From the IMG/VR virus record IMGVR_UViG_3300037993_000206: a DNA stretch of 64,000 bases; one strand, 5' to 3'. How positions within the stretch are numbered: position 1 is the stretch's first letter; each line of letters begins with the position of its first letter. Of this stretch, positions 1,794 through 60,092 are shown piece after piece. The position numbers and the translations under genes are program-made. Source of the stretch: an uncultured virus (IMG/VR IMGVR_UViG_3300037993_000206) (lineage: Duplodnaviria > Heunggongvirae > Uroviricota > Caudoviricetes). Under the pieces are notes generated by a model. It ran no database searches and was not told the DNA's origin. It saw only the letters and a program-made list of their open reading frames with translations.

Positions 1794-1926
1794 ATTATCA
1801 ATCCCCCTATCACTATTCTTAAAACTCTAATCGTTTGGGCAAAAACAGACTTATCGTTGTACTCCCAAAATATACTAGCAACAGCCTCTAATATAATACA
1901 ACTCGCTAATATTACGATAGGTACTT

Positions 1927-2337: not shown

Positions 2338-2340
2338 ATT

Positions 2341-3645: not shown

Positions 3646-4538
3646 GCTCTCATCCTCACTATTAAATATACTCCCATCAAAACAATAATGGGAACAATAT
3701 AATAAATCCGATTCTTTAATCCTTTGGGTTCTTGAATTAAACCAACAACTAATACTACTTGAATAATCGCCAACACTACCTTGCTTGACCTTGCCAATAA
3801 ATACCACAACCAATTCATAGGAACATGGCGTACCCACTCCGAATTACTGAAAGACATATACCACAGCAACCAATAATGTCCGAAATGATACCAAACAACC
3901 CACGCTAAAATAAATACAGAACATAACCCTGACAAGATAGCAACCCATTTACTTATTAAACGGTAATTATTCTTAGCGTAAAAACAAAATAGCATCGCAA
4001 ATGGAATTACCATAAATGGGTGTGGTCGCCAAACTAAAATCTCATTATAAAGTAAATCACTTACTTTAAACCATTGATGATAATAACTTGTCCATGAGCA
4101 AACTTGATAAATAATTTCCCAAAAACCAACGGAAGCAAAAATCGCCAATGAACCTAAGAACCATGCCCGTTGATTACCTATCTTATTCTTAGTTAAATCC
4201 ATTGTTAAGAGAAACAACAAAACCAAAACGCCTTGCGTAGTGAAAGACCCAATACGTGGAATGTGCATTCCTAAAACATCATCAGACACCCACGAAACTA
4301 ATAACGCAAATAACGCTATAAACCCTAACCAATTCCATATTTTAGGATTTAAAAATTTCCATCCGACCCAACTAGAAGTATACTCATAAACCACAGCACC
4401 TAATAAAATCGCTATTGGAAACCAAAACTGATAGTCTGTAAATAACGAAATATTAGAGCTAATTTCATTAGGTTCAACAGGTACGAAACAAACCACTAAC
4501 CCCCAACATATAGCGATAATCCATAGTGCCTTTCGCAC
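3642..4538 (-). CDS. Multi-pass membrane protein, paralog of 8334-9203
   Basis: Several hydrophobic segments; shared GxWExxYQ and late LxxxSKV motifs. Confidence 0.7.
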   Translation of the reverse strand: MRKALWIIAICWGLVVCFVPVEPNEISSNISLFTDYQFWFPIAILLGAVVYEYTSSWVGWKFLNPKIWNWLGFIALFALLVSWVSDDVLGMHIPRIGSFTTQGVLVLLFLLTMDLTKNKIGNQRAWFLGSLAIFASVGFWEIIYQVCSWTSYYHQWFKVSDLLYNEILVWRPHPFMVIPFAMLFCFYAKNNYRLISKWVAILSGLCSVFILAWVVWYHFGHYWLLWYMSFSNSEWVRHVPMNWLWYLLARSSKVVLAIIQVVLVVGLIQEPKGLKNRIYYIVPIIVLMGVYLIVRMRA

Positions 4539-5981: not shown

Positions 5982-7051
5982 TGAATCACGCCTCTAAAAA
6001 CTTTTATCATAGTAGGAACATGTAAAAGAGAATTAGTATAACTGACATTTGCCAACTGACAACCCTTACAACCTTTTACTACTGTCCTGATTATTTTAGC
6101 AGTTGGACTATTCCATAAAGCATTGAAATCATATTCATACAATCTAAGATTACCCATACTTTGATACATGATACAACAAGGTACAACTTCGGCATCGGGT
6201 GTAATCTGGCAACTTGCATATCCGGCGTAACAAGGGATATGGCTTCCGTTTTCCATATAACTGATTACCTTATTGTAATAATCCTGACGGAATGAACGTA
6301 TAATAGTTTTAGGTTGACTTAGGGATAATTCCTTTAATACTGATACGGCATCTTTATATTCGTCTAATTCGGGTGTAATAGATAAACCAACCGTCCCTAA
6401 TTCAACACGTTGTTCTGCAATTTCCGTAATGAAATGGGACTTGTCTTTAGGTAAAAGAGATAGCCAATCTACAATCTCTTTTATATCTTTAACATTCGCT
6501 TTACTGATTACCGAATGAATACCCACTGTTAAGTTAGGTACTTTCAACGCCTGTAAACTTCTTATCGTATCCAATGCATTATGATAATATCCTTTCACTC
6601 CCCTAATTTCATCATTCCTATTCGGGTCATAATGGTCTAAACTGACATTAACCGTGATTTTTGTTTCAGGTGACAGTTTACATATCTGCCAGATACCATC
6701 TTCTATTCTACTCGCCATTTGTCCGTTAGTCGGAATATTTATAATCGCCGGATGACAATTCTCAATTAAATAATAAACTACTTCAACTATATCTCTATAT
6801 AAAAAAGGTTCTCCACCTGTTAGTGTAACCCAATATACAGAATCACCTATATTCTTGAATATCTTAGCCCATTCATACGCCTTTAATTCGTCCTCTTTAG
6901 GCTTATCATATATCCGGCATGAGAAACAATGGGCATTACAACGATATGTTAGTCCTACCGTCAAATTTATTGGATTATTGACCTTTAAATTAAAGACTCT
7001 TTTTATAGGATAACGGGTTAAATTGTTTAACAAACCAACTGTTTTTAACAT
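5978..7051 (-). CDS. Radical SAM protein with SPASM/twitch domain
   Basis: CNAHCFSC, TGGEPF, C-terminal CYAG...VVPCC...CKGC. Confidence 0.9.
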   Translation of the reverse strand: MLKTVGLLNNLTRYPIKRVFNLKVNNPINLTVGLTYRCNAHCFSCRIYDKPKEDELKAYEWAKIFKNIGDSVYWVTLTGGEPFLYRDIVEVVYYLIENCHPAIINIPTNGQMASRIEDGIWQICKLSPETKITVNVSLDHYDPNRNDEIRGVKGYYHNALDTIRSLQALKVPNLTVGIHSVISKANVKDIKEIVDWLSLLPKDKSHFITEIAEQRVELGTVGLSITPELDEYKDAVSVLKELSLSQPKTIIRSFRQDYYNKVISYMENGSHIPCYAGYASCQITPDAEVVPCCIMYQSMGNLRLYEYDFNALWNSPTAKIIRTVVKGCKGCQLANVSYTNSLLHVPTMIKVFRGVIQ

Positions 7052-7523
7052 GGTATTTTGTCCCCAACCGAATGGTATAATCAGTCAATAGTTTAATATA
7101 CGCAATCAGTAAAAACCAACCGATAACTATCAGCCATAATGGTGCGTTGTACGCCCAAATATGTCTGACATAACCCATTATTTCAGACACCCCACCAACC
7201 AGAATTGTACAGAGAATAATCCCCACGATTGGTATACTGAAGCTACAAATAACCCAAACTCCAAACACTCCCCATGCCAGAGGAATCAACCACCAATAAG
7301 TGAAGGAATGAAATGGAACTTGAACGTAATGCCACAAACCATAAACTCCCAACGTGTTATCCAGAATAACCCCTATAGACAAAGAAACAAAGAAACCAAC
7401 TAACAAAGAATAAGGACTAATCCTCTTATATCTTGAGGCCACGCCATAAGTCACACATACAATAATGATTACTACTAACAGTGAAATCATTTTAAATCCT
7501 TTGTCGAATTTATCATATCCCAT
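6990..7523 (-). CDS. Small multi-pass membrane protein (start probably MISLL)
   Basis: Hydrophobic segments; within operon. Confidence 0.6.
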   Translation of the reverse strand: MGYDKFDKGFKMISLLVVIIIVCVTYGVASRYKRISPYSLLVGFFVSLSIGVILDNTLGVYGLWHYVQVPFHSFTYWWLIPLAWGVFGVWVICSFSIPIVGIILCTILVGGVSEIMGYVRHIWAYNAPLWLIVIGWFLLIAYIKLLTDYTIRLGTKYHVKNSWFVKQFNPLSYKKSL

Positions 7524-8344
7524 TGTCCATTAAGATTACCGCTTTGTTTTAATTCCAAACTCGCTAACTTGCGACTCTTTAACTCTAACTGTGTATAACC
7601 CAACATTGATTTAGGATATTTAAGTAAAAGTTTTAACGTAGTCTTTGCTAGACCTGTATGGATGGTATTCATAGTTGAAACCTTATGTTGTGATTGTAAA
7701 ATTAAATGACCTTTATAAATTCGCTTTCGCTGTTTTACAAAATCATCAACTGTTTTTGCCCCACAATTAAACACAATGGCATTAGGCGCATACCTTAATT
7801 GATAACCTGATTTTAAGATTTGCCCTTCAATATCCGCTTCATCTACTAATCCATGAGCGTCAATCGAATCAACTACATTCCTGAAAGCAATTATCTCTCC
7901 TGATTTTGGATTTATTAAAGATTGTTGATGATGTAATTCCCAAAGAATATAGGCTATACCACCCATATAATCTTTGCGGTCATTTATTGGGATTGGATGC
8001 CCACCAACCATACCAACCGATGAATCGTTGAATGGTTCTAATAGATATTTGTAAGTAAATGAAGTTGGCAAGGTATCTGCACTTTGTAAAACGCAAATAT
8101 CGCTCTTTAAATTCAATCTGGCGTGAGATAGATATAAATTCACAGCCGATGATTTTCCCTCACGTTTTGGTTGCACTATAACAGTGAACTTCTTATAAGA
8201 ATTGGCAATTTCAACTGTCCTATCAGTGCAACCGGAAGCGACTACCACCACATGATTTATAAGAGGTTCATTAACTAATTTATCCAATAGTTTACCGATA
8301 TTGGATTCTTCATTATAGGCGCACACCCCAACACTAACTTTCAT
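7487..8344 (-). CDS. Family 2 glycosyltransferase
   Basis: VGVCAYNEE, SGCTDRT, GKSSA, SAD, QRKRI motifs. Confidence 0.9.
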   Translation of the reverse strand: MKVSVGVCAYNEESNIGKLLDKLVNEPLINHVVVVASGCTDRTVEIANSYKKFTVIVQPKREGKSSAVNLYLSHARLNLKSDICVLQSADTLPTSFTYKYLLEPFNDSSVGMVGGHPIPINDRKDYMGGIAYILWELHHQQSLINPKSGEIIAFRNVVDSIDAHGLVDEADIEGQILKSGYQLRYAPNAIVFNCGAKTVDDFVKQRKRIYKGHLILQSQHKVSTMNTIHTGLAKTTLKLLLKYPKSMLGYTQLELKSRKLASLELKQSGNLNGQWDMINSTKDLK

Positions 8345-9203
8345 TTTTATGCCACACTAATTTAACAATCGCTAACATCATAAACACCTTACTTAGTTTC
8401 GTAACAAATAAAGCCCACCCGTTAAATTGAGAAGTGAATACTTGTTGTCTTAAAGTCCAGTTATAATAATCATCCACCCAATAACCGGACAATACCCAAT
8501 AAATCATACACACGGCGTACAACGCTAAAAATATCCAGACCCATTTGTTAAATTGTATGAAGTGAAACATTCTATTTAATTCCCAAATAATTACAGCACC
8601 GATACCCGCCATTGGTAATTCAATAACCCATTCCCAAACAATCCAACGCATTCCCATCATTGTACCAATCTGGGGCATATCATAGTAAATTTTTAAGAAA
8701 GTCTGATAAGGTACTTCCCAAACGCCTGTCCAAATACCTAATAATCCAGCAGATGCTATAACCGCATATGTATTGGACATTCTATCTTTGAGAATTAAAA
8801 ATAGAATTAACATTCCAGAGAATATAACAGCATCACTAGGCCATGAACCTAATCTAACCGCTGACTTTTGGGAGAACATGTAATAACAAGCTAAAATACC
8901 GATAAGGCAAACAGTAGCTATGACTTCATATCTGAGGATTTTATTTAAAAATCGATAGAGAATATTGTTGGGTTTATAAATGAAGATATACATACATACC
9001 ATTAAAAGGAATGGCATACACATAGCGATTTTTTGCATGTTAGCGGCATCTTGAATTTGATTGAGGACAGTTAAATTGATGCGCCGTTCAATAGTAAAAG
9101 CAGAAACACAAATAATAAACAGACAGAATATAATAATAGTTCGTCTGTTAAATATTATTGCCAGTGGGCTATTTTGGGTGTGTTTAACGGATGTTGCTTC
9201 CAA
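8334..9203 (-). CDS. Multi-pass membrane protein, paralog of 3642-4538
   Basis: Hydrophobic; GVWEVPYQ, KLSKV. Confidence 0.7.
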   Translation of the reverse strand: MEATSVKHTQNSPLAIIFNRRTIIIFCLFIICVSAFTIERRINLTVLNQIQDAANMQKIAMCMPFLLMVCMYIFIYKPNNILYRFLNKILRYEVIATVCLIGILACYYMFSQKSAVRLGSWPSDAVIFSGMLILFLILKDRMSNTYAVIASAGLLGIWTGVWEVPYQTFLKIYYDMPQIGTMMGMRWIVWEWVIELPMAGIGAVIIWELNRMFHFIQFNKWVWIFLALYAVCMIYWVLSGYWVDDYYNWTLRQQVFTSQFNGWALFVTKLSKVFMMLAIVKLVWHKNES

Positions 9204-10252
9204 ACTATTCTCCGACTTAATATATAATTAACTGCAAACGCTGTAAATATTCCTATAAAAGCTGAGAACATATACCAGACATGCAATTTACCAGTCAAGA
9301 TAAATAGTATCAATTCGTTAATAGCCACAGCAATACAACTTGTAGCTACGTATCGCAAATATTTAAACACATGAGATTTAAAACTCACATTTAAAAACTG
9401 GTCGAAAGTCCACAAACTGTTTAAGGTGTAATTGCTCGTAATTGCCAGAATTGAGGATATTAGATAGGATAGCATGTAAAATACATGACCATAATTGGTT
9501 AGCAAAAACATACTTAGAAGTTTGATAACCGCACCTGATGAACCAACCATTATAAATTTCAAAAACTTATTGCGTAGATACAAGTCTTTTAATTGAGAAC
9601 AATATTCCGTAATGATTTTAGAGGATAGTTTTGATTCGCCGTGTTTGCGGTTTTCAAAGACAAAGGGAACTTCTTTAAATGATTTATAATTCCCTTTAAC
9701 CATAACTTCAAGTGAAGTTTTCCAACCGATAGGATTTAATTCAGAGGTATCCAAACACTTTGTTTGAACTCCAAAAAATCCAGATGTTCGGTCTAATATT
9801 TTAGGAACTAAAGGAAACGCTAAGAGATTAGCAACCTTAGAAGTAATGACTCGTTTTAAACTCCAATCTCTAACCCCACCACCTTTAACCCAACGTGAAG
9901 CTATGACAAGTTCATTACTATCTAAGGCTTTAATAATATCAGGGAGAACTTCTGGTGGATGTTGTAAATCCGCATCCATAACAATAACTTTATCGGTAGA
10001 AGCGTATTGAATACCCTCAATAATTGAGGCCGATAATCCTTTTTTAACTGCATGATGATTCACTATACAACCTAGTTTGGTTGCTAAATTTGCGGTATCC
10101 ATATTAGGTGAATCATCTACTATTAAGATATAGACATCGTTGCAAACTGCACGAATACGACTAACTAATTCAGGTAGATTCTCCGACTCATTATAAGTGG
10201 GGATTACTATTGTTACATCGTTATTCAATTCACCGACCTTTTCCAAATCCAA
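9155..10252 (-). CDS. Polyprenol-phosphate glycosyltransferase (DPM1-like GT2) fused to GtrA-like flippase domain
   Basis: VIPTYNE, VDDS, MDADLQHPPE, ASR, R.HGESKL; C-terminal KF..VG...NY.LN..WTF GtrA pattern. Confidence 0.9.
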   Translation of the reverse strand: MDLEKVGELNNDVTIVIPTYNESENLPELVSRIRAVCNDVYILIVDDSPNMDTANLATKLGCIVNHHAVKKGLSASIIEGIQYASTDKVIVMDADLQHPPEVLPDIIKALDSNELVIASRWVKGGGVRDWSLKRVITSKVANLLAFPLVPKILDRTSGFFGVQTKCLDTSELNPIGWKTSLEVMVKGNYKSFKEVPFVFENRKHGESKLSSKIITEYCSQLKDLYLRNKFLKFIMVGSSGAVIKLLSMFLLTNYGHVFYMLSYLISSILAITSNYTLNSLWTFDQFLNVSFKSHVFKYLRYVATSCIAVAINELILFILTGKLHVWYMFSAFIGIFTAFAVNYILSRRIVWKQHPLNTPKIAHWQ

Positions 10253-10686
10253 AAGTTAGAGATAAAATATCTACTTAAAAACATGACGATTGTTGCTAGA
10301 ATAAAAGCTACCATATAAAATAAATGTCCAAAATGAACCAATAAAAAGAGCAGCACCACATCTAATACCGAAGTTGCTAATCCCATGACAAGATACTGTC
10401 CGTAACTTAAAGAACTGGATTTTTTATCTTTGAAAGTCCACTTCTTGTTCATCCAGTAATTGAATGAGATTGAGCAAGGAAGTGAAATTAAAGTTGCTGG
10501 TAAATAAAACTGTTGACCTAGAATAGTAGTTTGAGTTTGCAACCAATAAGTAACTGGATAATAGACCGCCATATTAACTAAAAACCCTAGACCGCCCACA
10601 AACATAAAGTTGACGATTCGGATTTTGAATAATCGCTTTATAAGATTTAAAACCTTTGATTCATTTATAACTTCTACTTTAGCCAT
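10225..10686 (-). CDS. GtrA-family lipid-linked sugar flippase
   Basis: F..VGGLG..VN, NY..NKKWTF, four TM helices. Confidence 0.85.
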   Translation of the reverse strand: MAKVEVINESKVLNLIKRLFKIRIVNFMFVGGLGFLVNMAVYYPVTYWLQTQTTILGQQFYLPATLISLPCSISFNYWMNKKWTFKDKKSSSLSYGQYLVMGLATSVLDVVLLFLLVHFGHLFYMVAFILATIVMFLSRYFISNFWIWKRSVN

Positions 10687-11479: not shown

Positions 11480-11629
11480 TTAATGTACATGAGCCTTTTC
11501 TTTAAATAAAGCATCTTTAAATTTTTCTTCGTCAAAGTTTCCTGCTTTTATGTGTTGAAGGGCTTTTTCACCTAATATGTCAAATGTACATCTTGATTTA
11601 TCATCTTCGTAATCATAGACAAATTTAAA
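11480..11629 (-). pseudogene. Orphan 3' tail (49 codons) of a diverged allele of gene 12928-13302; its first ~20 nt are the predicted TnpB guide
   Basis: Translates FKFVYDYEDDKSRCTFDILGEKALQHIKAGNFDEEKFKDALFKEKAHVH*, 29/49 identical by hand to the C-terminus of 12928-13302; its stop abuts the next ATG. Confidence 0.85.
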
Positions 11630-11760
11630 CCGTTCCATAAGACTTACCCTTATTATCTAAGTAGTGCTTACTTCCTACTTCATCGTGGACAGCCTCTAAT
11701 TGTTGAGGACTTACACCCACTCCATAGGCGTTAATTCCCGAAGAACTTTCGGTATTTAAT
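11610..11760 (-). ncRNA. Predicted omegaRNA of tnpB1 (scaffold ending ...GGAACGG at 11630, guide 11629-11610)
   Basis: Overlaps tnpB 3' end; similar to the equivalent region of tnpB2; IS607-like AACGG end; 5' boundary approximate. Confidence 0.65.
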
Positions 11761-12905
11761 ATCTTAATTCCACATTCACGAATGTTTTTGGCTGCATTTT
11801 CATCACGCTCATTGATTGCCCCACAACTCAAACAAACCCACGTTCTATCACTTAATTTAAGGTCTTTATTTACTGTACCACACGAATTACACTTTTTAGA
11901 ACTAGGTTCAAATCGTGGGATAACGACTAACTTAGACCCGTACCACTTTGTTTTATATTCTAACATACGTCTAAATGTACCCCACCCTTCATCGCCTATC
12001 GACCTTGCCAAATGATGATTATGTACCATGCCTTTTACGTTTAAAATTTCGATACAAATAACTGACTTGGTTTTCGCCAGTTTTGTTGATTCTTTTGCTA
12101 AAAAGTCCTTACGAATGTTCTTTATTTTACGATAAGCTCTGACTAATGCTAATTGAGCCTTCTTTTTATTCTTTGAACCTTTCTTCTTTTTGGATAATTG
12201 GTGATGTAGACGTTTAACTCTATCAATCCGTTTACGTAAGGGTTTAGGGGAAACTAACTCATAGGTTTCAGTTCCATTTGAAACCGTACCAAAGGTTTTT
12301 ATTCCTATATCAATTCCAATAACATCACCTTGAATTGGTCGAGGATTAGGTCTTTCGACTTCAACACATAAGGAACAAAACCACCTATCAGCATCACGAC
12401 TGACAGTTGCACTTAATATTCGACCATTTATTTTGGAAGTTGATTCCTTAGATTTAATAAAACCAATTTTAGGAATACGTATATTATTGTCTAACACACG
12501 AATATCATACTTTATACGTTTATCATAACTATTATTTCTTACTCTAAAGGAATCATGCACACCTTTTTTCTTAAACTTAGGAACCCCAATTTTATTGTCG
12601 TGATATTTTATCCTTCTAGTTAGATGAGAATAAGATTCCCTTAAATCTCTCAATCGTTCTTCTACAATACTTTTAGGAACTAATTGCAACCAACTATATT
12701 CATTTCTTTTTAATAAATCCAACTCTTTATTTTGATTAAAGCTAGTTGTAAATCTAGCCTTTCCACTATTTGTCTTATATAATTCTAACCTTTTCGATAA
12801 AGCCCAATTCCAAACAAACCTAGATACACCACAACACTTAATCAATTTAGTAATCTGTTTGTCATTTGGATTCAATTCATACCGAAATATTTGATTAATC
12901 AACAT
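11625..12905 (-). CDS. tnpB: IS607-type RNA-guided nuclease TnpB (copy 1), no transposase adjacent
   Basis: N-terminal HTH (RFVWNWAL), RuvC-I GIDIG, RuvC-II ICIE, zinc finger CxxC..CxxC, RuvC-III RDENAA. Confidence 0.95.
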   Translation of the reverse strand: MLINQIFRYELNPNDKQITKLIKCCGVSRFVWNWALSKRLELYKTNSGKARFTTSFNQNKELDLLKRNEYSWLQLVPKSIVEERLRDLRESYSHLTRRIKYHDNKIGVPKFKKKGVHDSFRVRNNSYDKRIKYDIRVLDNNIRIPKIGFIKSKESTSKINGRILSATVSRDADRWFCSLCVEVERPNPRPIQGDVIGIDIGIKTFGTVSNGTETYELVSPKPLRKRIDRVKRLHHQLSKKKKGSKNKKKAQLALVRAYRKIKNIRKDFLAKESTKLAKTKSVICIEILNVKGMVHNHHLARSIGDEGWGTFRRMLEYKTKWYGSKLVVIPRFEPSSKKCNSCGTVNKDLKLSDRTWVCLSCGAINERDENAAKNIRECGIKILNTESSSGINAYGVGVSPQQLEAVHDEVGSKHYLDNKGKSYGTV

Positions 12906-12927
12906 ATATTATATATGAGACTTATTA

Positions 12928-13302
12928 TTATCTGCTATCACCTATATGTTTTTCAGAAACAACATAATGAGCATGAGGTTCATTATCGAATAATTTATCT
13001 TTTATTTTATCTTCTTCAAAGTCACCTTTTTTTATATGTTGCAAAGCACCTTCAGCTAATTTATCAAACCTACAAGTAGCATTAGGATTTTCATAATCAT
13101 ACACAAATTTAAACCCAATATCCCATGTAATACCAAATAACTTTAATAAATAAGCTCTTGTATGTACTCTACGTGTTCCGCCATCTGGATATTTAGTGGT
13201 ATCCGAAACCTTAACCCAATAATTAGGGTAATCTATTAAGTCTTGTTCAACAATCTTTCGCATAAATGAGTTAGGAAGTTTCATGGAACGCTTTTTTGTC
13301 AA
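12928..13302 (-). CDS. Hypothetical protein whose 3' half is duplicated (diverged) downstream of tnpB1
   Basis: GGAGGT SD; promoter at 13335-13363; homology to 11480-11629. Confidence 0.8.
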   Translation of the reverse strand: MTKKRSMKLPNSFMRKIVEQDLIDYPNYWVKVSDTTKYPDGGTRRVHTRAYLLKLFGITWDIGFKFVYDYENPNATCRFDKLAEGALQHIKKGDFEEDKIKDKLFDNEPHAHYVVSEKHIGDSR

Positions 13303-38717: not shown

Positions 38718-39077
38718 TTAAAGATAATTCTTATCGCCCATCCTCTTACGAATTATTTTAACATGGCATCTATGCTCAAAATTATTACCAATATAGTTAT
38801 GCCATTGATTTACTGTCCAACCATCAATTTTACAAGTGCATTCGTTATCCTTACAAAACTTATTTAAAATTGCAACTAAAGAGTTAGCCGCATTCCTTTT
38901 GACTTCATCATTAGTTTCCTTAAATGAATCACCATCATGATTTAAAGTTGGACAATCAGGCATTAATCTATAAGCATAAATTTCCGCAGTATCACTACCA
39001 AAACTATTATCGTTATAATACGCTTGCCATAAATCTGAATAGATAGACAATGCTTGAATCATTGAAATATTGTGCAT
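38718..39077 (-). CDS. Hypothetical protein
   Basis: GGAGG SD; ORF track. Confidence 0.65.
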   Translation of the reverse strand: MHNISMIQALSIYSDLWQAYYNDNSFGSDTAEIYAYRLMPDCPTLNHDGDSFKETNDEVKRNAANSLVAILNKFCKDNECTCKIDGWTVNQWHNYIGNNFEHRCHVKIIRKRMGDKNYL

Positions 39078-39457
39078 ATTATTTATCCTCCATCAACTGC
39101 TAAAATTCTAATTATGTATACAACAAATGCAATAACAGAAACCCCTACAATAAAAGGAATATGATTAGATAGCCCATAACCGAATATAGAACCGAGGCAA
39201 CTACCAATAATTATATTTGTTAAAAATCTCATTTTAGTTTTCCTTATTTATTTTACAAATAATATGGCCACTAGAATAAATATTCCAATTCCCACCATCA
39301 TACCCAACATACCCATAAAAGGTACTAGCAACTCACTGGATAAAATCCTATCTATTAAATTACCCATCAATTTTCCTTATTTTTATGGAGTATATCTTCT
39401 ACATTAATATCCCAAATTGACTTTTATAAAGTATCAATTCTACCTCTAATAACGTAA

Positions 39458-40756
39458 CTATGGATTTAAAATTCTTCCACATTCGACTGTTCTGTAAGAC
39501 TTATCTTTAGTGTTTGGTAGTTGCTTACTTTCTGTTTCACGGTCAATCGCTACCTTATATGGTAGGCTTACATCGACTCCACAGACGTTTATTCCCGATG
39601 AACCACCGGTATTTAATTTATCTAACCCATACTGGTATATATTTTGAGCCGCATTTTCATCCCTATCGTGTTTAACACCACAATTAGGGCAAACCCAATT
39701 TCTATCATCTAATGTCATCCCTTTAAATATATAATGGCAATCACTACACATTTTACTTGAAGGGTAACTTGTAGGGATTAAGATTAATCTTGAACCATAC
39801 CACTTTGTTTTATATTCAAGCATCTCTCTAAATATACCCCAACCTGAATCTGAAATCGACCTACCTAATATTTTATTACGCTTCAGATTTTCCACTTTTA
39901 AATCTTCGATACAAATAACTGACTTGGTTTTCGCCAGTTGACTTGTTAATTTTGCAATAAAATCATGTCTTGTATTCTCAATATGTTTATGACATTTAGA
40001 TAATTGGATATTAGCTTTATGCCTATTATGTGACCCCTTTTTAGTCCTTGCTTGTTGTTGTGCTAATATTTTTAAACGAGATAATTTTTTACTCAATGAC
40101 TTATGATGTTCAACTATATCTATACTATTACCATCATAAGTGGTTAAATAGTTCTTCAAGCCCACATCAATGCCGATGACACCCCCATTGTTTTTAACAT
40201 CGGTAATCTCTTTTGATACCTTTAGACAACAATACCAACGTTCAGATTCTTTTTTAATTGTTACATTTAATATTTTACCACTAAAACTACTTGTATCTTC
40301 TTTAACCCTTACAAATCCAATCTTGGGTAAATGTATTTTATTCCCATCTAGTCTTAATGTACTAGTTTTTCCATCGGCGACATTATTTGTTAATCTAAAG
40401 CTATCCCGTTCACCTTTCTTTTTAAACTTAGGTCTGCCATATTTTTTAGAATGATTTTGGATACGCCTAATTAAATCTGCGTATGCTCTATCTAAATCTT
40501 GTAATGATTCTTGTGCTACACATTTGGACACATCTAACATCCACGGATATTGGTTATACTTTATACTATTTAATTCAATATTCTGTTTATAAAACGAAGT
40601 GAACCGTTCCTTACCTTGTTTAGTATTATAAAGTTCAATCCGTTTCGCTAATCCCCAATTCCATACGAATCTTGAAGTCCCACAAGACTTTATAAACGCA
40701 GTCTTTTGTTTATTATTGGGATTCAATTCATATTTATATGCTTTTAAAACTATCAT
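39458..40756 (-). CDS. tnpB: IS607-type RNA-guided nuclease TnpB (copy 2), no transposase adjacent
   Basis: AYKYEL.P, RFVWN, GIDVG, ICIEDL, CSDC..CPNC, RDENAA. Confidence 0.95.
   Translation of the reverse strand: MIVLKAYKYELNPNNKQKTAFIKSCGTSRFVWNWGLAKRIELYNTKQGKERFTSFYKQNIELNSIKYNQYPWMLDVSKCVAQESLQDLDRAYADLIRRIQNHSKKYGRPKFKKKGERDSFRLTNNVADGKTSTLRLDGNKIHLPKIGFVRVKEDTSSFSGKILNVTIKKESERWYCCLKVSKEITDVKNNGGVIGIDVGLKNYLTTYDGNSIDIVEHHKSLSKKLSRLKILAQQQARTKKGSHNRHKANIQLSKCHKHIENTRHDFIAKLTSQLAKTKSVICIEDLKVENLKRNKILGRSISDSGWGIFREMLEYKTKWYGSRLILIPTSYPSSKMCSDCHYIFKGMTLDDRNWVCPNCGVKHDRDENAAQNIYQYGLDKLNTGGSSGINVCGVDVSLPYKVAIDRETESKQLPNTKDKSYRTVECGRILNP
39467..39615 (-). ncRNA. Predicted omegaRNA of tnpB2 (scaffold ending ...AGAACAG at 39487, guide 39486-39467)
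   Basis: Aligns to tnpB1 end (AAGTCTTACAGAACAG vs AAGTCTTATGGAACGG); 5' boundary approximate. Confidence 0.6.
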
Positions 40757-40757
40757 T

Positions 40758-40889
40758 TTAACTATTCTTCTTTAGATAATCGCTAACCGCTATTCTCACT
40801 AAAACGCTAACATTAACGCATTTTTGTGTTGAAAGTATTTTTAATTTTTCTATTTGTGATTTATCCATGTAATAAGATTGTTTTTTCAT
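40758..40889 (-). CDS. Ribbon-helix-helix (CopG-like) regulator, 43 aa, directly upstream of tnpB2
   Basis: Hand-translated MKKQSYYMDKSQIEKLKILSTQKCVNVSVLVRIAVSDYLKKNS; beta-strand plus S.LVR.AV..YL helix. Confidence 0.7.
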   Translation of the reverse strand: MKKQSYYMDKSQIEKLKILSTQKCVNVSVLVRIAVSDYLKKNS

Positions 40890-40901
40890 ATCCACATCTT
40901 A

Positions 40902-40930
40902 ATAATATCACACCATCTATCCATTGTCAA
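40902..40930 (-). promoter_or_regulatory. Promoter TTGACA-N17-TATTAT for RHH-tnpB2
   Basis: Motif match. Confidence 0.7.
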
Positions 40931-40944
40931 GACATATTTTGGAC

Positions 40945-40975
40945 AAAAGAAAGGGTGAGTTTTTACGCTCACCCC
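40945..40975 (-). terminator. Intrinsic terminator of the split capsid-like gene
   Basis: GGGTGAG-loop-CTCACCC followed by TTTCTTTT, 20 nt after stop. Confidence 0.75.
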
Positions 40976-40995
40976 ATTCCTTTGCTTCAGAATCG

Positions 40996-42248
40996 TTATT
41001 CCTTAGTACCAGCACCAGCGTTCTTCCACATTCTGTACGTTCTCTTAATCTTTCGATAAAGCGTGGACTATATTTTTATCCATCTTTTTCAGTGGATACA
41101 GCCTCTATAGTCTCTATGCATTGGCGGGTTCATTCCCCGTTTTAGTTTGGGATTACCATGCCCAATTTATTTGGGTTTAGGTTCAACCAAGTTAGGGCTG
41201 AGAGCCATCTAAGATTACTCTTAAATGCGGCCAGTATATCGACCATAACCAATAACGGAACCATAATCACAATTGCCGCAACGTATATGCATCTAATCTT
41301 TCGATATAGTATGGACTATACTTTCATCCGTTTCAGGATGCCCAACCTCTAGTCTCTACACATGATATCTGGTTCACTTCCAGACCTAGCTAGGGATTAC
41401 CATGACCATTATTGGTTTTAGGTTCAACCTAATTTGTTGGGAATTTTTACATCTACGATTACTCGTAAAGTTGGCCTGATTGACCAAAAGGAAAACGGCT
41501 TTGATTACTCATGTCACTCACATTTCTATGAGGTTCGGACTCTATCACATTCCTCTTTAAAGGAATCTCGCCGCCGAGTCTCTCCGCATGGCCTATCTTC
41601 AATTGATAGATTAGTTCGGTGGTTAACTTGCCTATTCTTTATTTTCTAGGTTTAGTTTTCCCCGACTTTGACGAGTTATTCGATGCACATTACTATGCAA
41701 AGACCCTAATCAGTTAAGGTACTACCAGTATCCGTACCGGAAATGCTAAATCTGTAATCTTATCTTTCGATAAGTGTCGGAACATATCATTACCCATCTA
41801 AGTGGGTATCCCCTCTATGTTCTCTTTGCGTTTCACCATTCATTTTGGTGTTTAGTTCTCGATTGGCTTACATCTTTTTAGATGATTAGCGTTCCAAGAG
41901 TTAGGGGGATTTTTCAACCTCAATTACTTGAGGAAGCGGCCATTTCTTTAACCGTCGGAGTTACGAAGTTCGCAATAACCAAGAAAACCACGATTGAAGC
42001 CACCATAGTAGCAAGCGATTTAATTTATGTTCTCCCATTTTTCAATGGATATCGGACTTTTTCTTTATCCTATAAAGGATAGTCCCTGTTAAGTCTCTGC
42101 ACACGCCCGAAGTTCATTTCTTCTGCTTGGCTCAAGATTACCATGACTCATTTCTAAGTTTTAGATTCCCTTGAATTTAAGGACTTCATTGACCTACAAA
42201 TTACTTTGTAGTCGGGCCTCGCTATTCACCCGTCATGAGGTGGCCCAT
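40996..42248 (-). CDS. Intron-split putative major capsid or envelope protein; exons 42248-42228, 42015-41951, 41745-41717, 41507-41483, 41289-41242, 41041-40996; product MGHLMTGLATMVASIVVFLVIANFVTPTVISGTDTGSTLIKAVFLLVIYVAAIVIMVPLLVMVTYRMWKNAGAGTKE (77 aa; 81 aa from ATG 42260)
   Basis: Exons joined at P1 U-G sites and terminal G give 234 nt in one open frame; two hydrophobic helices with a polar linker; own promoter and terminator. Confidence 0.8.
41042..41241 (-). ncRNA. Group I intron 5 (200 nt; alternative 3' splice site at 41033)
   Basis: P1 GGU/GCC, P2 GUAA loop, CCUAA..AUGG receptor, P7 GACUA/UAGUC, P9 GAAA loop. Confidence 0.9.
41290..41482 (-). ncRNA. Group I intron 4 (193 nt; 3' end set by frame)
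   Basis: P1 UUGGU/GCCAA, P2 GUAA, P7 GACUA/UAGUC, P9 GAAA. Confidence 0.9.
41508..41716 (-). ncRNA. Group I intron 3 (209 nt)
   Basis: P1 ACCU/GGGU, P10 UAAUCA/UGAUUA, P7 GACUC/GAGUC, P9 GAAA. Confidence 0.9.
41746..41950 (-). ncRNA. Group I intron 2 (205 nt)
   Basis: P1 CGGU/GCCG, P10 CAUUUC/GAAAUG, P7 GAACA/UGUUC, P9 GAAA. Confidence 0.9.
42016..42227 (-). ncRNA. Group I intron 1 (212 nt)
   Basis: P1 CGGGU/GCCCG, P10 CUUGCUA/UAGCGAG, P7 GACUU/AAGUC, P9 GAAA. Confidence 0.9.
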
Positions 42249-42373
42249 TTTTAGCACCATCGAACCAGTCTGAGCGACCAACCGTGTAGACCTTGTGGTC
42301 TACCGTAAAACATTTGCGAGACATTTTAAGAGTTTCTATAACTCACCTCTCGCATATATTTAACATTATTTTT

Positions 42374-42403
42374 ATTTTATCACTGGTTATTGGTTAATGT
42401 CAA
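42374..42403 (-). promoter_or_regulatory. Promoter TTGACA-N18-TAAAAT for the split capsid-like gene
   Basis: Motif match with extended TG. Confidence 0.65.
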
Positions 42404-42442
42404 TAGATTTTTGAGAACCAAATTTATATTATTTTAAGTAGG

Positions 42443-44584
42443 TTAAATAATAGTGAGTAGATTATAGATGATTAAGAATGAAATAATAGCGAAGATTAGC
42501 ATAGAAGCGGTTATGGCTAATGCCTTTACAGAACCATTGGCACGAATACGTATAATACCTACAAAGATAGCAATAGCTGCAACTTCTAATGGAATTAATG
42601 CCCAAAATATAGACCTAGAAGAATCTACGGGATATGAAACTAATGTTTCAGTTCCTATATTAATGTAAGTTCCTAACATATTTAAGTTTTCAGCCGCCGC
42701 CCAATTAGCGTCTACTGAGGATGTACTTATTCTAACCTCATCTATAATTCCGTTGAAATAATCGGATGCACCATTATAATAAGCCCCGATATTAAATGAG
42801 TTACTTTGATAAGGCGTAATTGCCGTACTAGATAAAGTGGCGGTATCAGCCGTTCCATTAATATAGATTCGCATGGTATTATCAACACCAATAGTAGCTT
42901 GAATCAAATACCAATTCCCTACTATTAAAGAAGTATTACCTTGAAGATATTGGTCAGTTGACCCATTACCAACCCCAAAAACGACCACATTATTAGCCCC
43001 ACTAGTCCGTAATCCTAAATATATTCCCGTAGCGGCGGTAGGACTAGAATTAGCTATAATTGAATTATAAGTTGAAATTGAACCGATTGGCTTAACCAAC
43101 GCTGTTAAGGTAAGTTGAGGCATGGAAGTACCAGGACTAGCCGTGATACCAATTACCTTTACGATACTTGAACCATTCGCTACGATGGCTTCTGTTGAAC
43201 CAACTAATCTAACACCAATAGTAGTACCACCAATTTGATTTGTTGAAGTATAAGTTGCAACACCAGTACCGACTGTGATTATTTTACAAAGTCCGGTTGA
43301 ACCTTCTGTGAATAGTATATGAGTATCGTCAGTCCATTCAAGATTATATATATGAGTTCCTAACCCACTATAAGTATAGCTGGTTACTTTTGTACCATAA
43401 TTTATTACTTGAATATCATTTGCACCATATTCTGCTAATGCTATTGTCAAATTTCCGCTGATTACTCTAGTAGCAACATCATTCGGCCTGTTAAATCCAG
43501 TCATCGTCCATAATACACTTTGATTTGCTCTACTTATTAATGTAAGCGAATTTGCACTCATATTAATAACCATAACCGAATCGTCCGTTGTGGTAAGAGT
43601 AACTGGTCTACAATATATTTCAGTTCCACTTGTATTATAAGACCATACTCTAGTTCCAGCAGGATTCAATTCATAAACATACCCACCACCATCACCATCT
43701 GCTGTTAGATAGTCACCATTAGAATATTTATAGACCGATTCCGGCCCATCCGTAGTAACTGTATCTGTTGGGCTATTATATTGGAATACTGCAACACCTG
43801 TTTTGGGATTAACTTCACCTATTCCCGTATGACCGGCACTTCCCCTAGCTACTGCATAAAGAATATTACCATTTGGAAGTAACATAGCCTGATAAATATT
43901 ACCCGTTATAGTATAGGGAGTTAAATCATATCTTTGAAGAATACCGTAGTTCCATGTAACCGGAATATATTGAGAAGATGTTGCTGTGAAACTCTGCCCG
44001 TTACCAACTTGACCTGCAATAGTAGGCGGATTTGCCGCTCCATTTTTAGCGATACTACCCATTGTTGATTGCATTGAATCATAGATATGAGAAGTATCTA
44101 CATAGTCGTCCATATGTCCAACAAATAAATGAGAAGAACTCCAAACATTAGATACTCCATAAGAATAAGTTTGACCATCTGTTGCGGTCGGATTATCGTA
44201 ATAAAACCAAAAATATGAAGTATTAACTGATGCCGAAATAGAAGGGACTTGAATCCATACTGTAGCTAATTGACTGACTGAGTTCCACTGTTCTATTTCA
44301 TAATTTAAGGAATTGAAATTTGAATCAGCAAAGCGAATATCCGCACCGCTGGATTGACAACGACTAAAGTTAAAATTAGTGCTATTTAATTGTAGCAAAA
44401 CAACAAAGTTAGTTAGAGTTTCAGGTATTGTTGCATTTAAGATTGATATTTTACGAACATAGGTATATCCAGTAAAACTAGAAGTAGCTTGTACTTTTTG
44501 TGGTTGATTTATACTGAATAGGCTTAGTAAAAGCACCAAACCTACTAATATAAAACCACTACGTTCTAAATATCGTTTTAACAT
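42443..44584 (-). CDS. Surface protein: DUF2341-like domain, beta-propeller insert, LamG/ConA-like domain, C-terminal double TM anchor
   Basis: GADIRF...L.YEIEQW...VWIQVP (DUF2341); F.GIIDEVRIS (LamG); signal peptide. Confidence 0.8.
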   Translation of the reverse strand: MLKRYLERSGFILVGLVLLLSLFSINQPQKVQATSSFTGYTYVRKISILNATIPETLTNFVVLLQLNSTNFNFSRCQSSGADIRFADSNFNSLNYEIEQWNSVSQLATVWIQVPSISASVNTSYFWFYYDNPTATDGQTYSYGVSNVWSSSHLFVGHMDDYVDTSHIYDSMQSTMGSIAKNGAANPPTIAGQVGNGQSFTATSSQYIPVTWNYGILQRYDLTPYTITGNIYQAMLLPNGNILYAVARGSAGHTGIGEVNPKTGVAVFQYNSPTDTVTTDGPESVYKYSNGDYLTADGDGGGYVYELNPAGTRVWSYNTSGTEIYCRPVTLTTTDDSVMVINMSANSLTLISRANQSVLWTMTGFNRPNDVATRVISGNLTIALAEYGANDIQVINYGTKVTSYTYSGLGTHIYNLEWTDDTHILFTEGSTGLCKIITVGTGVATYTSTNQIGGTTIGVRLVGSTEAIVANGSSIVKVIGITASPGTSMPQLTLTALVKPIGSISTYNSIIANSSPTAATGIYLGLRTSGANNVVVFGVGNGSTDQYLQGNTSLIVGNWYLIQATIGVDNTMRIYINGTADTATLSSTAITPYQSNSFNIGAYYNGASDYFNGIIDEVRISTSSVDANWAAAENLNMLGTYINIGTETLVSYPVDSSRSIFWALIPLEVAAIAIFVGIIRIRANGSVKALAITASMLIFAIISFLIIYNLLTII

Positions 44585-48235: not shown

Positions 48236-50062
48236 TTGGTACAAACTGAAAAACCATTAGGTATAAATAATTATGGAACAATCCCTCATTTAATTGGGAG
48301 TCGAGTTACATTAGGTGATAAACATTGTCACGAAGGTCAAGTTAGAATTGCGACTGAGAAAGTTAGAGATAGACACGATGAAGTAATCGTAACTGAAAAA
48401 GTTGATGGATGTTTAAATTCTCGTGTAGTTGTATTAACTGATAAAGGGAATATCCCAATTGGTAGAATAGTAAACCAAAAATTGCCAGTTTTAGTTGCTT
48501 CGTATAACGAGTCTAATCAAATAATAGAATATAAGAGAATATTAGAATATCATAAGCAACATTATAATGATAAGTGGATTAAGGTGAAAATTACATCGAC
48601 AAAACAAGGCAACCATCATCTTGTTATAACAGTTACACCTAATCATCTATTTTATTGTAAGAGAGGGAATGATATTCTTAATGTCCAAGCTATAGACTTA
48701 AAAATAGGTGATAAAGTATTCCAATCGGCTGATAAAATTGATACAGAAGCGTACCAAATAATATTAGGTGGATTATTAGGGGACTCTAGCTTTTTACATA
48801 CTGGGCCTAATCACCATTACGGGTTTGCATTTGGGCATTCCTTGTCACAAGAGGGGTATTTTATTTATAAAATGAGATTATTGGGAGGTTTAGTTCACGA
48901 AACAACTAGGCAACGTGGAGGTTTTGAAGGTAGTAAGGAAAATCGTAGGGCATATTCTCATCATACGCCATATGTAGATGATTTAATTACAAAAAATTGC
49001 ATCGTGGATGGCAAAAAAGGTATAACGACTCAATGGATAAAGCAACTTAATCCGCTTGGTTTGGCTATTTGGTATATGGATGATGGAAGTTGCAGGTTTA
49101 GTTCTATGCAAAGGCCTAGATTACACATTGCTACTAATGGTTTTCCATTTCATCAAGCTCAGATGTTGAGTGATATGTTACGGTTTAAGTTTAATATAGA
49201 TAATGGGGTATATGATTATAAAGGTGCAACTATAGTCTGTACGGCTGATGGAACAGAGAGATTCTTCGATTTAATTTATCCTTATGTACCCCAATGTATG
49301 AAATATAAATTGCCCCCTAAATATAAGAACAGGGCTTGTGTTCTAGAGGGGTTTTTTGGATTATATAGTTCTCAGTCTTTAATTGAAACTACAGTTGTTG
49401 ATATTGATTATAACGGGAAGGTTTATGAAGGGGAAAATTGGCAGTATGATTTAACAGTGGAAGATAACCATAACTACTTTGCTAGTGATATTTTAGTACA
49501 TAACTCCAATGTCGGGGTTGCATTGCTTAATGGTGAAATTATTGCATTAACTCGTGCTGGATATAAGGCAGAAACTTCACCTTATGAACAACATTGGCAT
49601 TGGAATAATTGGGTCAAATCTAACGAGAGTCGATTTAGATACATATTAAAAGAAGGTGAAAGAATTGTTGGTGAATGGCTTATGCAAGCACATGGTACAA
49701 GATATAATTTAATGCATGAACCATTCGTAGTTTTTGACTTAATGAAAGAACATGATAGAGTTTCTTATAATGAACTTTTAGAAAGAACTTATGGTTTTCA
49801 ACATCCCCATCTTTTATATCGTGGTAATCGACCATTAAGTATTGAAGCGGCTTTGAATATTTTAGGTGAACATGGATATCATGGAGCTATTGATTTAGCA
49901 GAAGGTTGTGTCTGGAAAATTGAAAGAAAAGGTATAGTAGATTTCATGTGTAAATATGTCAGACCTGACAAAGAAGATGGTATTTACTTACCGGAAAAAA
50001 GTAAGTTAGACCCTGTTTGGAATTGGTATCCGTATGGATATATTTTAAAAGAGGATAAATAA
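48236..50062 (+). CDS. ATP-dependent RNA ligase (Rnl2-like) interrupted by an intein
   Basis: Motif I TEKVDG|SN, GEW, FVVFD, EGCVW, KYV. Confidence 0.85.
   Translation: MVQTEKPLGINNYGTIPHLIGSRVTLGDKHCHEGQVRIATEKVRDRHDEVIVTEKVDGCLNSRVVVLTDKGNIPIGRIVNQKLPVLVASYNESNQIIEYKRILEYHKQHYNDKWIKVKITSTKQGNHHLVITVTPNHLFYCKRGNDILNVQAIDLKIGDKVFQSADKIDTEAYQIILGGLLGDSSFLHTGPNHHYGFAFGHSLSQEGYFIYKMRLLGGLVHETTRQRGGFEGSKENRRAYSHHTPYVDDLITKNCIVDGKKGITTQWIKQLNPLGLAIWYMDDGSCRFSSMQRPRLHIATNGFPFHQAQMLSDMLRFKFNIDNGVYDYKGATIVCTADGTERFFDLIYPYVPQCMKYKLPPKYKNRACVLEGFFGLYSSQSLIETTVVDIDYNGKVYEGENWQYDLTVEDNHNYFASDILVHNSNVGVALLNGEIIALTRAGYKAETSPYEQHWHWNNWVKSNESRFRYILKEGERIVGEWLMQAHGTRYNLMHEPFVVFDLMKEHDRVSYNELLERTYGFQHPHLLYRGNRPLSIEAALNILGEHGYHGAIDLAEGCVWKIERKGIVDFMCKYVRPDKEDGIYLPEKSKLDPVWNWYPYGYILKEDK
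48410..49504 (+). mobile_element. Intein (365 aa) with LAGLIDADG homing endonuclease
   Basis: Begins CLNS, TPNH block B, ILGGLLGDSS and LAIWYMDDGS, ends YDLTVEDNHNYFA...VHN followed by Ser. Confidence 0.92.
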
Positions 50063-58827: not shown

Positions 58828-58995
58828 ATGAAGATACAAAAACTCAAGTGCATAAGGTGTAAAAAGGAATGGATAGCTAGGGTTAAAAATCCAAAGCGTT
58901 GCCCTCAATGCAAAAGTCCTTATTGGAATAAACCATATGAGCGAAAGTTTCCAGATGATTTAATCCCTTGTATGAAAGATTTACCAATAGAATAA
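58828..58995 (+). CDS. Small zinc-ribbon protein (55 aa, MKIQKLKCIRCKKEWIARVKNPKRCPQCKSPYWNKP...)
   Basis: Hand-translated; paralog of 18276 and 35334 genes. Confidence 0.7.
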   Translation: MKIQKLKCIRCKKEWIARVKNPKRCPQCKSPYWNKPYERKFPDDLIPCMKDLPIE

Positions 58996-59012
58996 AAAGA
59001 GGAGTTAATAAA

Positions 59013-60092
59013 TTGAATAATTACATTGAATGTAAAACCCAACAAGAATTAGAAGTTTGTTGTAAAAATTATGATATTGCTATCGTTCGAAACGGTATTT
59101 TTACTGCTAGGGAAAATTTTCAAGTCACCGCTTGGGAAAATTCTCAAGTCACCGCTTGGGGAAATTCTCAAGTCACCGCTAGGGAAAATTCTCAAGTCAC
59201 CGCTAGGGAAAATTCTCAAGTCACCGCTTGGGAAAATTCTCAAGTCACCGCTTGGGGAAATTCTCAAGTCACCGCTTGGGAAAATTCTCAAGTCACCGCT
59301 TGGGAAAATTCTCAAGTCACCGCTAGGGAAAATTCTCAAGTCACCGCTTGGGAAAATTCTCAAGTCACCGCTTGGGAAAATTCTCAAGTCACCGCTAGGG
59401 GAAATTCTCAAGTCACCGCTTGGGAAAATTCTCAAGTCACCGCTAGGGGAAATTCTCAAGTCACCGCTAGGGGAAATTCTCAAGTCACCGCTTGGGAAAA
59501 TTCTCAAGTCACCGCTTGGGAAAATTCTCAAGTCACCGCTTGGGAAAATTCTCAAGTCACCGCTTATAATTATAGTATGGTTAGAGCTTGTGATTATTCA
59601 GTAGTAAAAGCTTCTGGCTATAACGCCCTAACCCAAAATGGAGATAATGCTAAAATCACCAAATCAAAAAATTGTACTTTGATTAAAGTACCTGATAAGG
59701 TAACATCCCTTAAAGAATATATGGACTTTTATCCTTGCAAAGTTACTGATACTGCTATCTATTTATACAAGGCTGTCAAAAAAGATTTAAAAGCCTTTTA
59801 CGATGGAGTTACTCAATATCCCGTTAAAGGTAAAATTTCTACCGATGTTTTAAGTCCATCATCTAGCGGTAGTTGTGCTAAAGGTCTACATTTCTCTCAC
59901 TTTGATTGGGCTGTTAATTTGGGACAATCATCTGGTAAATTTGTAATTCTAAAGGCTCGTATACCGAAGATTAACCCTCAAACTAAAAAAGAAAATATTG
60001 TAGTCAGTGAAGATTGTGATGGTAAACTACGATGCCAATATGCGGAGATTGTAGAAGTTATTAAAGATTGGCAACATTATCAAGATAAGTAA
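59013..60092 (+). CDS. Octapeptide-repeat beta-solenoid protein with C-terminal globular domain (YKAV...C..GLHF...DGKLR)
   Basis: GGAG SD before TTG 59013; A(W/R)(E/G)NSQVT repeats. Confidence 0.8.
   Translation: MNNYIECKTQQELEVCCKNYDIAIVRNGIFTARENFQVTAWENSQVTAWGNSQVTARENSQVTARENSQVTAWENSQVTAWGNSQVTAWENSQVTAWENSQVTARENSQVTAWENSQVTAWENSQVTARGNSQVTAWENSQVTARGNSQVTARGNSQVTAWENSQVTAWENSQVTAWENSQVTAYNYSMVRACDYSVVKASGYNALTQNGDNAKITKSKNCTLIKVPDKVTSLKEYMDFYPCKVTDTAIYLYKAVKKDLKAFYDGVTQYPVKGKISTDVLSPSSSGSCAKGLHFSHFDWAVNLGQSSGKFVILKARIPKINPQTKKENIVVSEDCDGKLRCQYAEIVEVIKDWQHYQDK
59106..59561 (+). repeat. 19 tandem 24-nt repeats GCT(T/A)GGG(A/G)AAATTCTCAAGTCACC
   Basis: Direct count. Confidence 0.95.

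Follow-up and report, generated by a model that had tools for sequence, protein, structure and literature searches.

Organisation of the tnpB2 locus

We analysed 64,000 nucleotides of the uncultured-virus record IMGVR_UViG_3300037993_000206 (IMG/VR), here called the window, which is low-GC, virus-like DNA. It contains two tnpB genes, tnpB2 (39458-40756) and tnpB1 (11625-12905), whose proteins are 49% identical. The subject of this report is tnpB2, a transposase-less TnpB-omegaRNA cassette of an IS607-related clade, which lies at the 3′ end of a strongly promoted gene with five introns and whose guide shares 13 contiguous nucleotides with the last exon of that gene. All genes of the region are on the minus strand, and its features are as follows.

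42374-42403 (-), promoter-like site of the intron-split gene: TTGACA, 18 nt, TAAAAT, with TG; 11 of 12 consensus positions
40996-42324 (-), small gene with five group-I-like introns, from Rfam RF00028 matches, sequence reading and codon scores
42324-42256; 42015-41951; 41751-41724 (-), preferred exons 1 to 3, from sequence reading, 5′ splice sites after GGT and codon scores
41509-41483; 41292-41242; 41043 (or 41037)-40996 (-), preferred exons 4 to 6, on the same basis
41044-41241 (-), intron 5, group-I-like and without an open reading frame (ORF); 3′ end at 41044 by the Rfam model, or at the in-frame alternative 41038
41016-41035 (-), resident target-like site in the last exon, reading R-M-W-K-N; 41033-41021 correspond to guide positions 3-15
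40952-40975 (-), terminator-like hairpin and T run, following the stop codon of the intron-split gene and preceding the cassette promoter
40902-40930 (-), promoter-like site of the cassette: TTGACA, 17 nt, TATTAT, with TG (extended -10); 11 of 12 consensus positions
40758-40895 (-), Arc-like ribbon-helix-helix (RHH) protein of 45 amino acids; Pfam RHH_3, 30.8 bits against a cutoff of 21.6
39458-40756 (-), tnpB2, 432 amino acids; the frame continues through scaffold and guide
39487-39609 (-), structured 3′ part of the omegaRNA scaffold, from a profile match and an alignment of 24 sequences
39467-39486 (-), guide, the 20 nt past the scaffold end, from the scaffold alignment and profile

An earlier reading made from the letters alone (the sequence-only reading) had put a terminator, a promoter, an RHH regulator and tnpB between the gene and the guide, with no tnpA. 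All four features were found, and no transposase family (Resolvase, Y1) was recognised among the 62 window ORFs scanned against Pfam. The serine-recombinase TnpA that stands beside tnpB in IS607 elements is therefore lacking at tnpB2.

Scaffold end and guide

tnpB1 and tnpB2 have 3′ ends that can be aligned as far as ...GTAAGTCTTAyrGAACrG, with no relation between them beyond it. A scan of metagenome contigs yielded 80 TnpB relatives with identities of up to 51%, and a scaffold-end profile was built on the last 150 nt of 12 scaffolds. The profile recognised the same scaffold end in 26 sequences, 12 of which were its own seeds, and different DNA followed the end in each. In an alignment of 24 scaffolds 19 base pairs were predicted, and 17 of the 19 showed compensatory changes on both sides. 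Rfam gave no family at gathering score over the tnpB2 scaffold. Because the tnpB1/tnpB2 alignment, the profile over the relatives and the covarying scaffold agree, we place the end of the tnpB2 scaffold (...CAGAACAG) at 39487 and the guide at 39486-39467, where the 20 nt read TCGAATGTGGAAGAATTTTA. This is the guide assigned by the sequence-only reading.

A 13-nt match between the guide and the last exon of the adjacent gene

The resident last exon at 41035-41016 reads CAGAATGTGGAAGAACGCTG. An exact match of 13 nt (39472-39484 to 41021-41033) places this site on the same strand, 1549 nt upstream of the guide, in the last exon of the adjacent gene; guide and resident site differ at positions 1, 2, 16, 17, 18 and 20. 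When the 13-nt block was searched against the window at up to one mismatch, two matches were found against 0.14 expected, and two were reached in 2 of 100 shuffles. The full 20-nt guide had no further window site within three mismatches.

On the minus strand, 520 of 60,980 20-mers (0.85%) have a same-strand exact match of at least 13 nt lying 50-3000 nt upstream. A tandem repeat (59.1-59.6 kb) and the introns account for the bulk of them, and we read about 20 pairs as sporadic. The chance of such a match is roughly 0.3% per 20-mer within 3 kb, and by our estimate it is more than 10-fold lower when only matches in the adjacent gene's last exon are counted. At the 17 other testable loci without long homology (described below), the longest exact upstream match to the guide was at most 8 nt. 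The match noticed earlier is thus real and beyond chance expectation.

The mismatches bordering the identical block are synonymous in the R-M-W-K-N frame (CGA/AGA and AAT/AAC), and TAT/TAC at guide position 1 would be a further synonymous pair if the two preceding bases are shared. Synonymous flanks are as expected of a re-spelled spare copy; with three positions this is weak evidence, amounting by our estimate to about 1 in 27.

Other cassettes carrying a second copy of a gene end

The layout recurs at tnpB1 in a far clearer form.

11610-13302 (-), tnpB1 comparator: 124-amino-acid gene at 12928-13302, tnpB1 at 11625-12905, scaffold end at 11630, guide at 11629-11610, displaced gene end

From guide position 1 onwards the DNA at tnpB1 has 49 codons whose translation shares 59% identity with the C-terminus of the upstream 124-amino-acid gene. 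The tnpB1 guide differs from the resident copy (13094-13113, minus strand) at position 12 only, a 19/20 match, and this copy retains its TGGG flank. A collection of proteins contained an uninterrupted 121-amino-acid homologue of the tnpB1 target gene (P0002, 64% identity), whose C-terminus is by eye somewhat nearer to the displaced copy (31/43) than to the copy in use (27/43).

Long homology starting at guide position 1 was found in three of 21 testable cassettes: tnpB1 and the metagenome loci L041 and L059. The order at L041 is a gene for a 90-amino-acid membrane protein, a truncated serine-recombinase remnant, tnpB, the scaffold end and a copy of the gene end, which comprises the last 48 or more codons and is 50% identical from guide position 1. 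At L059 the last 29 codons and stop of a gene of at least 528 amino acids are repeated right after the scaffold end (98 nt, 87% nucleotide identity). To these tnpB2 adds its 13 nt. The contig of L049 ends 58 nt past the scaffold and gave only a weak hint of 11 residues, and the remaining 16 testable cassettes showed nothing at the thresholds used. The target genes of tnpB1, L041 and L059 are mutually unrelated, and their TnpBs are at most about 50% identical.

The L041 recombinase remnant is 64% identical to a full IS607 TnpA, and some relatives (L025 and L035 included) are full IS607 copies whose TnpA has a Resolvase domain; the layout therefore derives from ordinary IS607 elements. Since a diverged end of the upstream gene begins at guide position 1 in all three loci, it appears that the cassette carries a replacement gene end and that the displaced native end templates the guide. 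Judged by sequence comparison, tnpB1, L041 and L059 give good support to the general layout, in which a spare gene end accompanies a TnpB cassette. The repeated design proposed by the sequence-only reading, which had called tnpB2 a second independent case, holds to that extent.

The tnpB2 nuclease and its upstream RHH gene

Pfam recognised in the tnpB2 protein the OrfB_IS605 RuvC core, the TNB zinc ribbon and an N-terminal helix-turn-helix (65.8, 82.1 and 61.5 bits, each over its cutoff), and residues 2-378 match solved ISDra2 TnpB structures with an E-value of 3e-67. The columns of the D..E..D and CxxC..CxxC motifs (D197, E284, D366, C337, C340, C356, C359) are invariant between tnpB1 and tnpB2, and the GxDxG, xEDL and DRDxNAA motifs of tnpB2 align to the solved relative. 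We take the invariant columns to be the catalytic ones by their correspondence to ISDra2. On these features, and with the covarying pairs and conserved end of the scaffold, the tnpB2 nuclease and its omegaRNA look functional.

The RHH gene lies directly upstream of tnpB2. The combination of promoter, RHH gene and tnpB is a known arrangement: bioRxiv 10.64898/2026.09.24.754181 describes Arc as a repressor of tnpB promoters. In two transposase-less loci, L049 (287-415) and L043 (185-322), a zinc-ribbon ORF of 43-46 amino acids lies directly upstream of tnpB in place of the RHH gene.

A stretch of about 34 nt within tnpB (encoding ..LAKTKSVICIE..) is identical in tnpB2 (39903-39936, minus strand) and tnpB1 (12030-12063, minus strand), despite the 49% identity of the proteins. 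A 21-nt core of it recurs unchanged in 8 of the 164 loci fetched, distant ones included, and several further paralogues in peat runs share it. It looks like a conserved nucleic-acid element within the gene.

The intron-split gene

Rfam was run over 39300-42450. Gathering mode gave two RF00028 matches, one to intron 1 (42033-42252, 73.3 bits) and one spanning introns 4 and 5 as a single match (41044-41501, 51.1 bits); E-value mode gave no match, which we ascribe to the behaviour of the tool. For introns 2 and 3 the basis is their shared core motifs, seen by eye only. The five introns, of about 190-250 nt each, interrupt just 290 nt or so of coding sequence.

The exons can be mapped in more than one way, as enumeration gave 7056 splice combinations that leave the frame open, and only the frame of the tail is robust. 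The preferred model puts all 5′ splice sites after GGT and yields a product of about 95 amino acids. All 25 best-scoring splice models share the tail R-M-W-K-N-A-G-A-G-T-K-E. With codon usage trained on 27 long window ORFs, the exon 6 tail scored +8.9 in the R-M-W-K-N frame and -6.4 in the rival frame, which favours the frame proposed earlier for this exon. A first exon model, with a Gly/Tyr-rich exon 2, was less favoured than the GGT-site model, in which exon 2 is hydrophobic. The GGT-site model is preferred because of the codon scores and because of the boundary of an identical intron copy found in run X6. The X6 contig joins this copy of intron 2 (41749-41946) to a different exon, which resembles a P-loop motif; the intron is therefore present in at least one other gene.

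The sequence-only reading had called the gene a capsid gene, a label that is putative. Its product in the exon model is far below HK97-type size, and no capsid, portal or terminase family was recognised in the window. The same reading had intron 5 inserted about 6 nt upstream of the guide-matching site. Measured from the equivalent of guide position 1, the insertion is 8 nt away if the 3′ splice site is 41044 and 2 nt away if it is 41038. The 41038 alternative was suggested by a GAGAAC element that follows the last hairpin of introns 1 and 5.

Target-adjacent motif and flanks

The full IS607 relatives have left flanks ending in GGG and scaffolds ending in ...CGG. For the IS607 TnpB of C. botulinum, PMC10690162 gives a TGGG target-adjacent motif (TAM) and a scaffold end of ...UCGG, and the GGG flanks of the relatives fit this TAM. 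At tnpB1 the scaffold likewise ends in GG and the resident flank is TGGG. IS607 elements are recognised by a GG end beside a G-rich target or TAM; at tnpB2 the scaffold ends in AG and the flank is ACGTA.

Searches for relatives and target alleles

The sequence-only reading had supposed that the guide is aimed at the capsid allele of a competitor and had named perfect guide targets in unrelated loci as a result that would speak against it. In IMG/VR the guide 16-mer had 10 exact matches, all in unrelated contexts (GC 0.32-0.52), three of them being one repeated sequence. Only L009 and L013 have the R-M-W-K-N frame open to either side, and no likeness of these two to exons 5 and 6 was seen by eye. 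The 10 matches look like chance-level background rather than targets. A degenerate R-T-Y-R-M-W-K-N pattern had one match in IMG/VR, out of frame and inside a lipoprotein signal peptide. No relative of the virus and no guide-matching allele, such as the supposed competitor's, was found in the collections searched.

Megablast of 39000-43000 against GenBank phages gave no match, no relatives of the two genes flanking the tnpB2 locus were found in IMG/VR, and the TnpB relatives there were few and distant (33-35% identity). Failure to find a guide-matching allele is therefore weak evidence, as the collections searched contain no relative of this virus.

Part of the stretch is contained in 16 peat or wetland runs, none of them an RNA run. 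Identical contigs from other peat runs span the scaffold/guide junction and the exon 6/terminator region. As the scaffold/guide junction is bridged by such contigs, the tnpB2 arrangement is real in the population and not an assembly artefact. In the contigs of four peat runs, at low depth, no joint bypassed the cassette, and neither the guide nor exon 6 had a variant allele.

A possible route of spread and its alternatives

The arrangement at tnpB2 can be read in the light of the three clearer loci. Exon 6, the last exon in use, would together with the terminator most likely be a replacement gene end moving as part of the cassette, and the 20 nt past the scaffold would be a remnant of the allele present before insertion, now serving as template for the guide. 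If the cassette is expressed and a co-infecting, cassette-free relative has an allele that matches the guide beside a TAM, TnpB2 would cut that allele. Repair off the cassette-bearing genome would then copy in the cassette along with the resistant gene end, and probably the adjacent introns as well. The resident copy would be spared by its mismatches at guide positions 1-2 and from 16 on, and by having no G-rich TAM adjoining; we infer escape through these seed mismatches, as we do the homing itself. Since the cut site would lie 2-8 nt from the insertion point of intron 5, the nuclease would also drive this intron, and perhaps its four neighbours, into intron-less alleles; a cut so near intron 5 would be expected to co-convert it. 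One may speculate further that TnpB2 mobilises the introns in trans.

We favour, at about even odds on the sequence comparisons, the view that tnpB2 is a second TnpB cassette with a spare gene end, in a much-eroded or minimal form. That it belongs to a natural RNA-guided home-and-rescue drive, in which a TnpA-less cassette cuts a rival's allele, carries a resistant end and also drives introns, we put forward tentatively and hold to be somewhat improbable. Several observations weigh against these proposals. The likeness at tnpB2 covers only 13 nt (16 at codon level) with nothing shared past guide position 16, whereas in tnpB1, L041 and L059 it extends to the stop codon, and the DNA beyond the tnpB2 guide has little coding signal by codon score. 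The tnpB2 scaffold terminates in AG and those of the relatives in GG; the resident ACGTA flank is without the G-rich TAM of the IS607 relatives, and if the sensitive allele has the same flank, a different TAM would be required for cutting. No cassette-free relative and no guide-matching allele was found in IMG/VR, GenBank phages or the contigs of four peat runs. The resident tnpB1 site combines TGGG with a 19/20 match, so protection of self by mismatches is not obviously sufficient. The layout was also found in none of six testable cassettes of cellular genomes (71 further loci, of which 70 were from cellular genomes and one from a viral contig; seven had a definable scaffold end).

Some of these observations would suit a relic without present function, left when an IS607-type insertion at or near the gene end was followed by rearrangement or microhomology recombination that produced a short repeat. 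The guide would then be flanking DNA, the sensitive allele gone, and the cassette drifting or in another role. A mere 13-16 nt in common, a scaffold ending in AG and not GG, the absence of a transposase among the scanned window ORFs, a target allele missing from IMG/VR and the peat-run contigs and the weak coding signal past the guide all fit this account. It has to accommodate, however, a tnpB2 frame, catalytic columns, strong promoter, RHH gene and covarying scaffold that are all intact, and a layout repeated in four independent cassettes; we consider it unlikely. Accidental recurrence of the guide 13-mer in the neighbouring gene is very unlikely. The AT-rich window does hold about 20 sporadic same-strand pairs of 13 nt within 3 kb, and the 16-mer has its 10 unrelated matches in IMG/VR, but the rate of about 0.3% per 20-mer, the more than 10-fold lower value for the adjacent gene's last exon, the limit of 8 nt at the 17 other loci, the synonymous flanking mismatches and the same relation at full length at tnpB1 all speak against accident.

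Intron 5 and the cassette might also stem from a single intron-plus-IS607 element, or be paired now in the manner of an IStron or of collaborative homing. The guide would then target the exon 5/exon 6 junction of an allele lacking intron 5, and in the resident copy the intron would separate TAM from target and so help to protect that copy, as in IStrons or collaborative homing (PMC13565253). IS607 IStrons with TnpB are known (PMC10690162); in an IStron a group I intron and the insertion sequence make up a single unit, and the splice sites fall at its two ends. The tnpB2 scaffold does end in G. If the first T of the guide is read as the last base of the GGT that closes exon 5, the sequence continues in frame as CGA ATG TGG AAG AAT and the 5′ flank ends in GG, as in IS607 targets, both being post hoc observations; the in-frame 3′ splice site 41038 lies 2 nt from the equivalent of guide position 1, and the 3′ end of intron 5 (GAGAACG, then TACAG) resembles the scaffold end CAGAACAG. 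GAGAAC is present after the last hairpin of intron 1 too, however, and intron 5 is, like intron 4, a complete ribozyme with its own 3′ end. Because a terminator and a promoter intervene between intron 5 and tnpB, one spliced intron-5/tnpB transcript is unlikely. The layout also occurs at tnpB1, L041 and L059, where no intron was called (the Rfam scan covered tnpB1 only, with no match nearby). An origin or pairing of this sort thus seems quite unlikely. Lastly, TnpB2-omegaRNA could bind its own exon 6 and damp the gene, as a TldR-like regulator, since it is in part complementary to this resident gene, whose promoter is strong. Prophages reportedly contain domesticated TnpB repressors (bioRxiv 10.1101/2023.11.30.569447), which counts in favour of such a role. 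The RuvC columns of tnpB2 are intact, however, the mismatches lie at the TAM-proximal end beside a flank that is not TAM-like, and the site is at the 3′ end of the gene, with no promoter there, so that regulation of this kind appears extremely improbable.

Relation to known systems

The nuclease, its omegaRNA and the Arc-like RHH module all belong to known types. IS607 TnpB-omegaRNA elements, including the C. botulinum IStrons (PMC10690162; review PMC13565253), resemble tnpB2 in that the scaffold overlaps the 3′ end of tnpB. Their nuclease cuts element-free copies and repair copies the element in, as is proposed for tnpB2. In both the guide is the DNA directly past the element end, and relatives carry the serine-recombinase TnpA. 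Unlike these elements, the tnpB2 cassette is without TnpA, and here a second, diverged gene end lies upstream, so that the gene stays whole and the target is not simply split. The targets published for IS607 TnpB are empty sites on sister chromosomes or plasmids, and spread into co-infecting phages is called theoretical in the 2026 review (PMC13565253). Copying into element-free plasmids driven by TnpB has reportedly been demonstrated (PMC11870625).

The Arc (RHH) plus tnpB modules of the IS605 family also place a small RHH gene directly upstream of tnpB behind a strong promoter, and modules of arc and tnpB only are described (bioRxiv 10.64898/2026.09.24.754181). There the published cases are ordinary insertion sequences, unlike tnpB2, and binding of the promoter by the tnpB2 RHH protein is putative. 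A further proposed likeness is to the free-standing homing endonucleases of T-even phages and to collaborative homing (PMC13565253): a nuclease beside a conserved gene cuts the competitor's allele, a few substitutions tell self from non-self, neighbouring DNA is co-converted, and in collaborative homing an ORF-less intron lies near the cut site. Recognition at tnpB2 would differ in using a guide RNA and not a protein, and the gene end here is duplicated because a copy of the target has to be kept as template for the guide.

In the literature we found no paper on a TnpB cassette that is flanked by a duplicated gene end or that carries a replacement gene end. A likeness in layout exists to the synthetic HomeR (home-and-rescue) and cleave-and-rescue drives, in which a nuclease and guide are placed in a needed gene together with a recoded, cut-resistant gene end; these are engineered, Cas9-based and made for diploid animals, unlike a natural TnpB case in a virus-like genome. 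Mobile endonuclease ORFs of fungal mitochondria, as in Allomyces atp6, also insert together with a replacement 3′ end, a foreign C-terminus, and leave the native end as a downstream remnant. They differ from the TnpB cassette in that the endonuclease is protein only and the remnant has no targeting role.

TnpB is known to retain its own transposon by cutting the emptied site. If the proposed route of spread is true, transposase-less cassettes can sit in needed genes at no cost by bringing a resistant replacement end, and can spread horizontally among viruses purely by cut-and-copy, a logic that engineers have reinvented for home-and-rescue drives. This would explain the persistence of solitary tnpB genes in virus genomes and would give a rule for predicting targets, namely that the guide is the ancestral end of the gene just upstream. 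The tnpB2 locus would in addition connect the spread of ORF-less group I introns with RNA-guided nucleases. Taken alone tnpB2 exemplifies the layout weakly; what makes it valuable is that it gives one genome a second case and that an intron is close by.

Other features of the window

A 608-amino-acid ORF at 48236-50062 (plus strand) encodes an RNA-ligase domain split by an intein with a LAGLIDADG endonuclease; this intein adds a third kind of selfish element to the window. The ORF at 58968-60092 contains a long tandem repeat (59100-59570) in which the copies are spaced by multiples of 24 nt. A cluster at 993-10686 (minus strand) encodes three radical-SAM enzymes, two with B12-binding domains and one with SPASM, together with two GT2 glycosyltransferases, GtrA-like membrane proteins and an epimerase. 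Beyond this cluster, dockerin and fn3 domains are present in large proteins.

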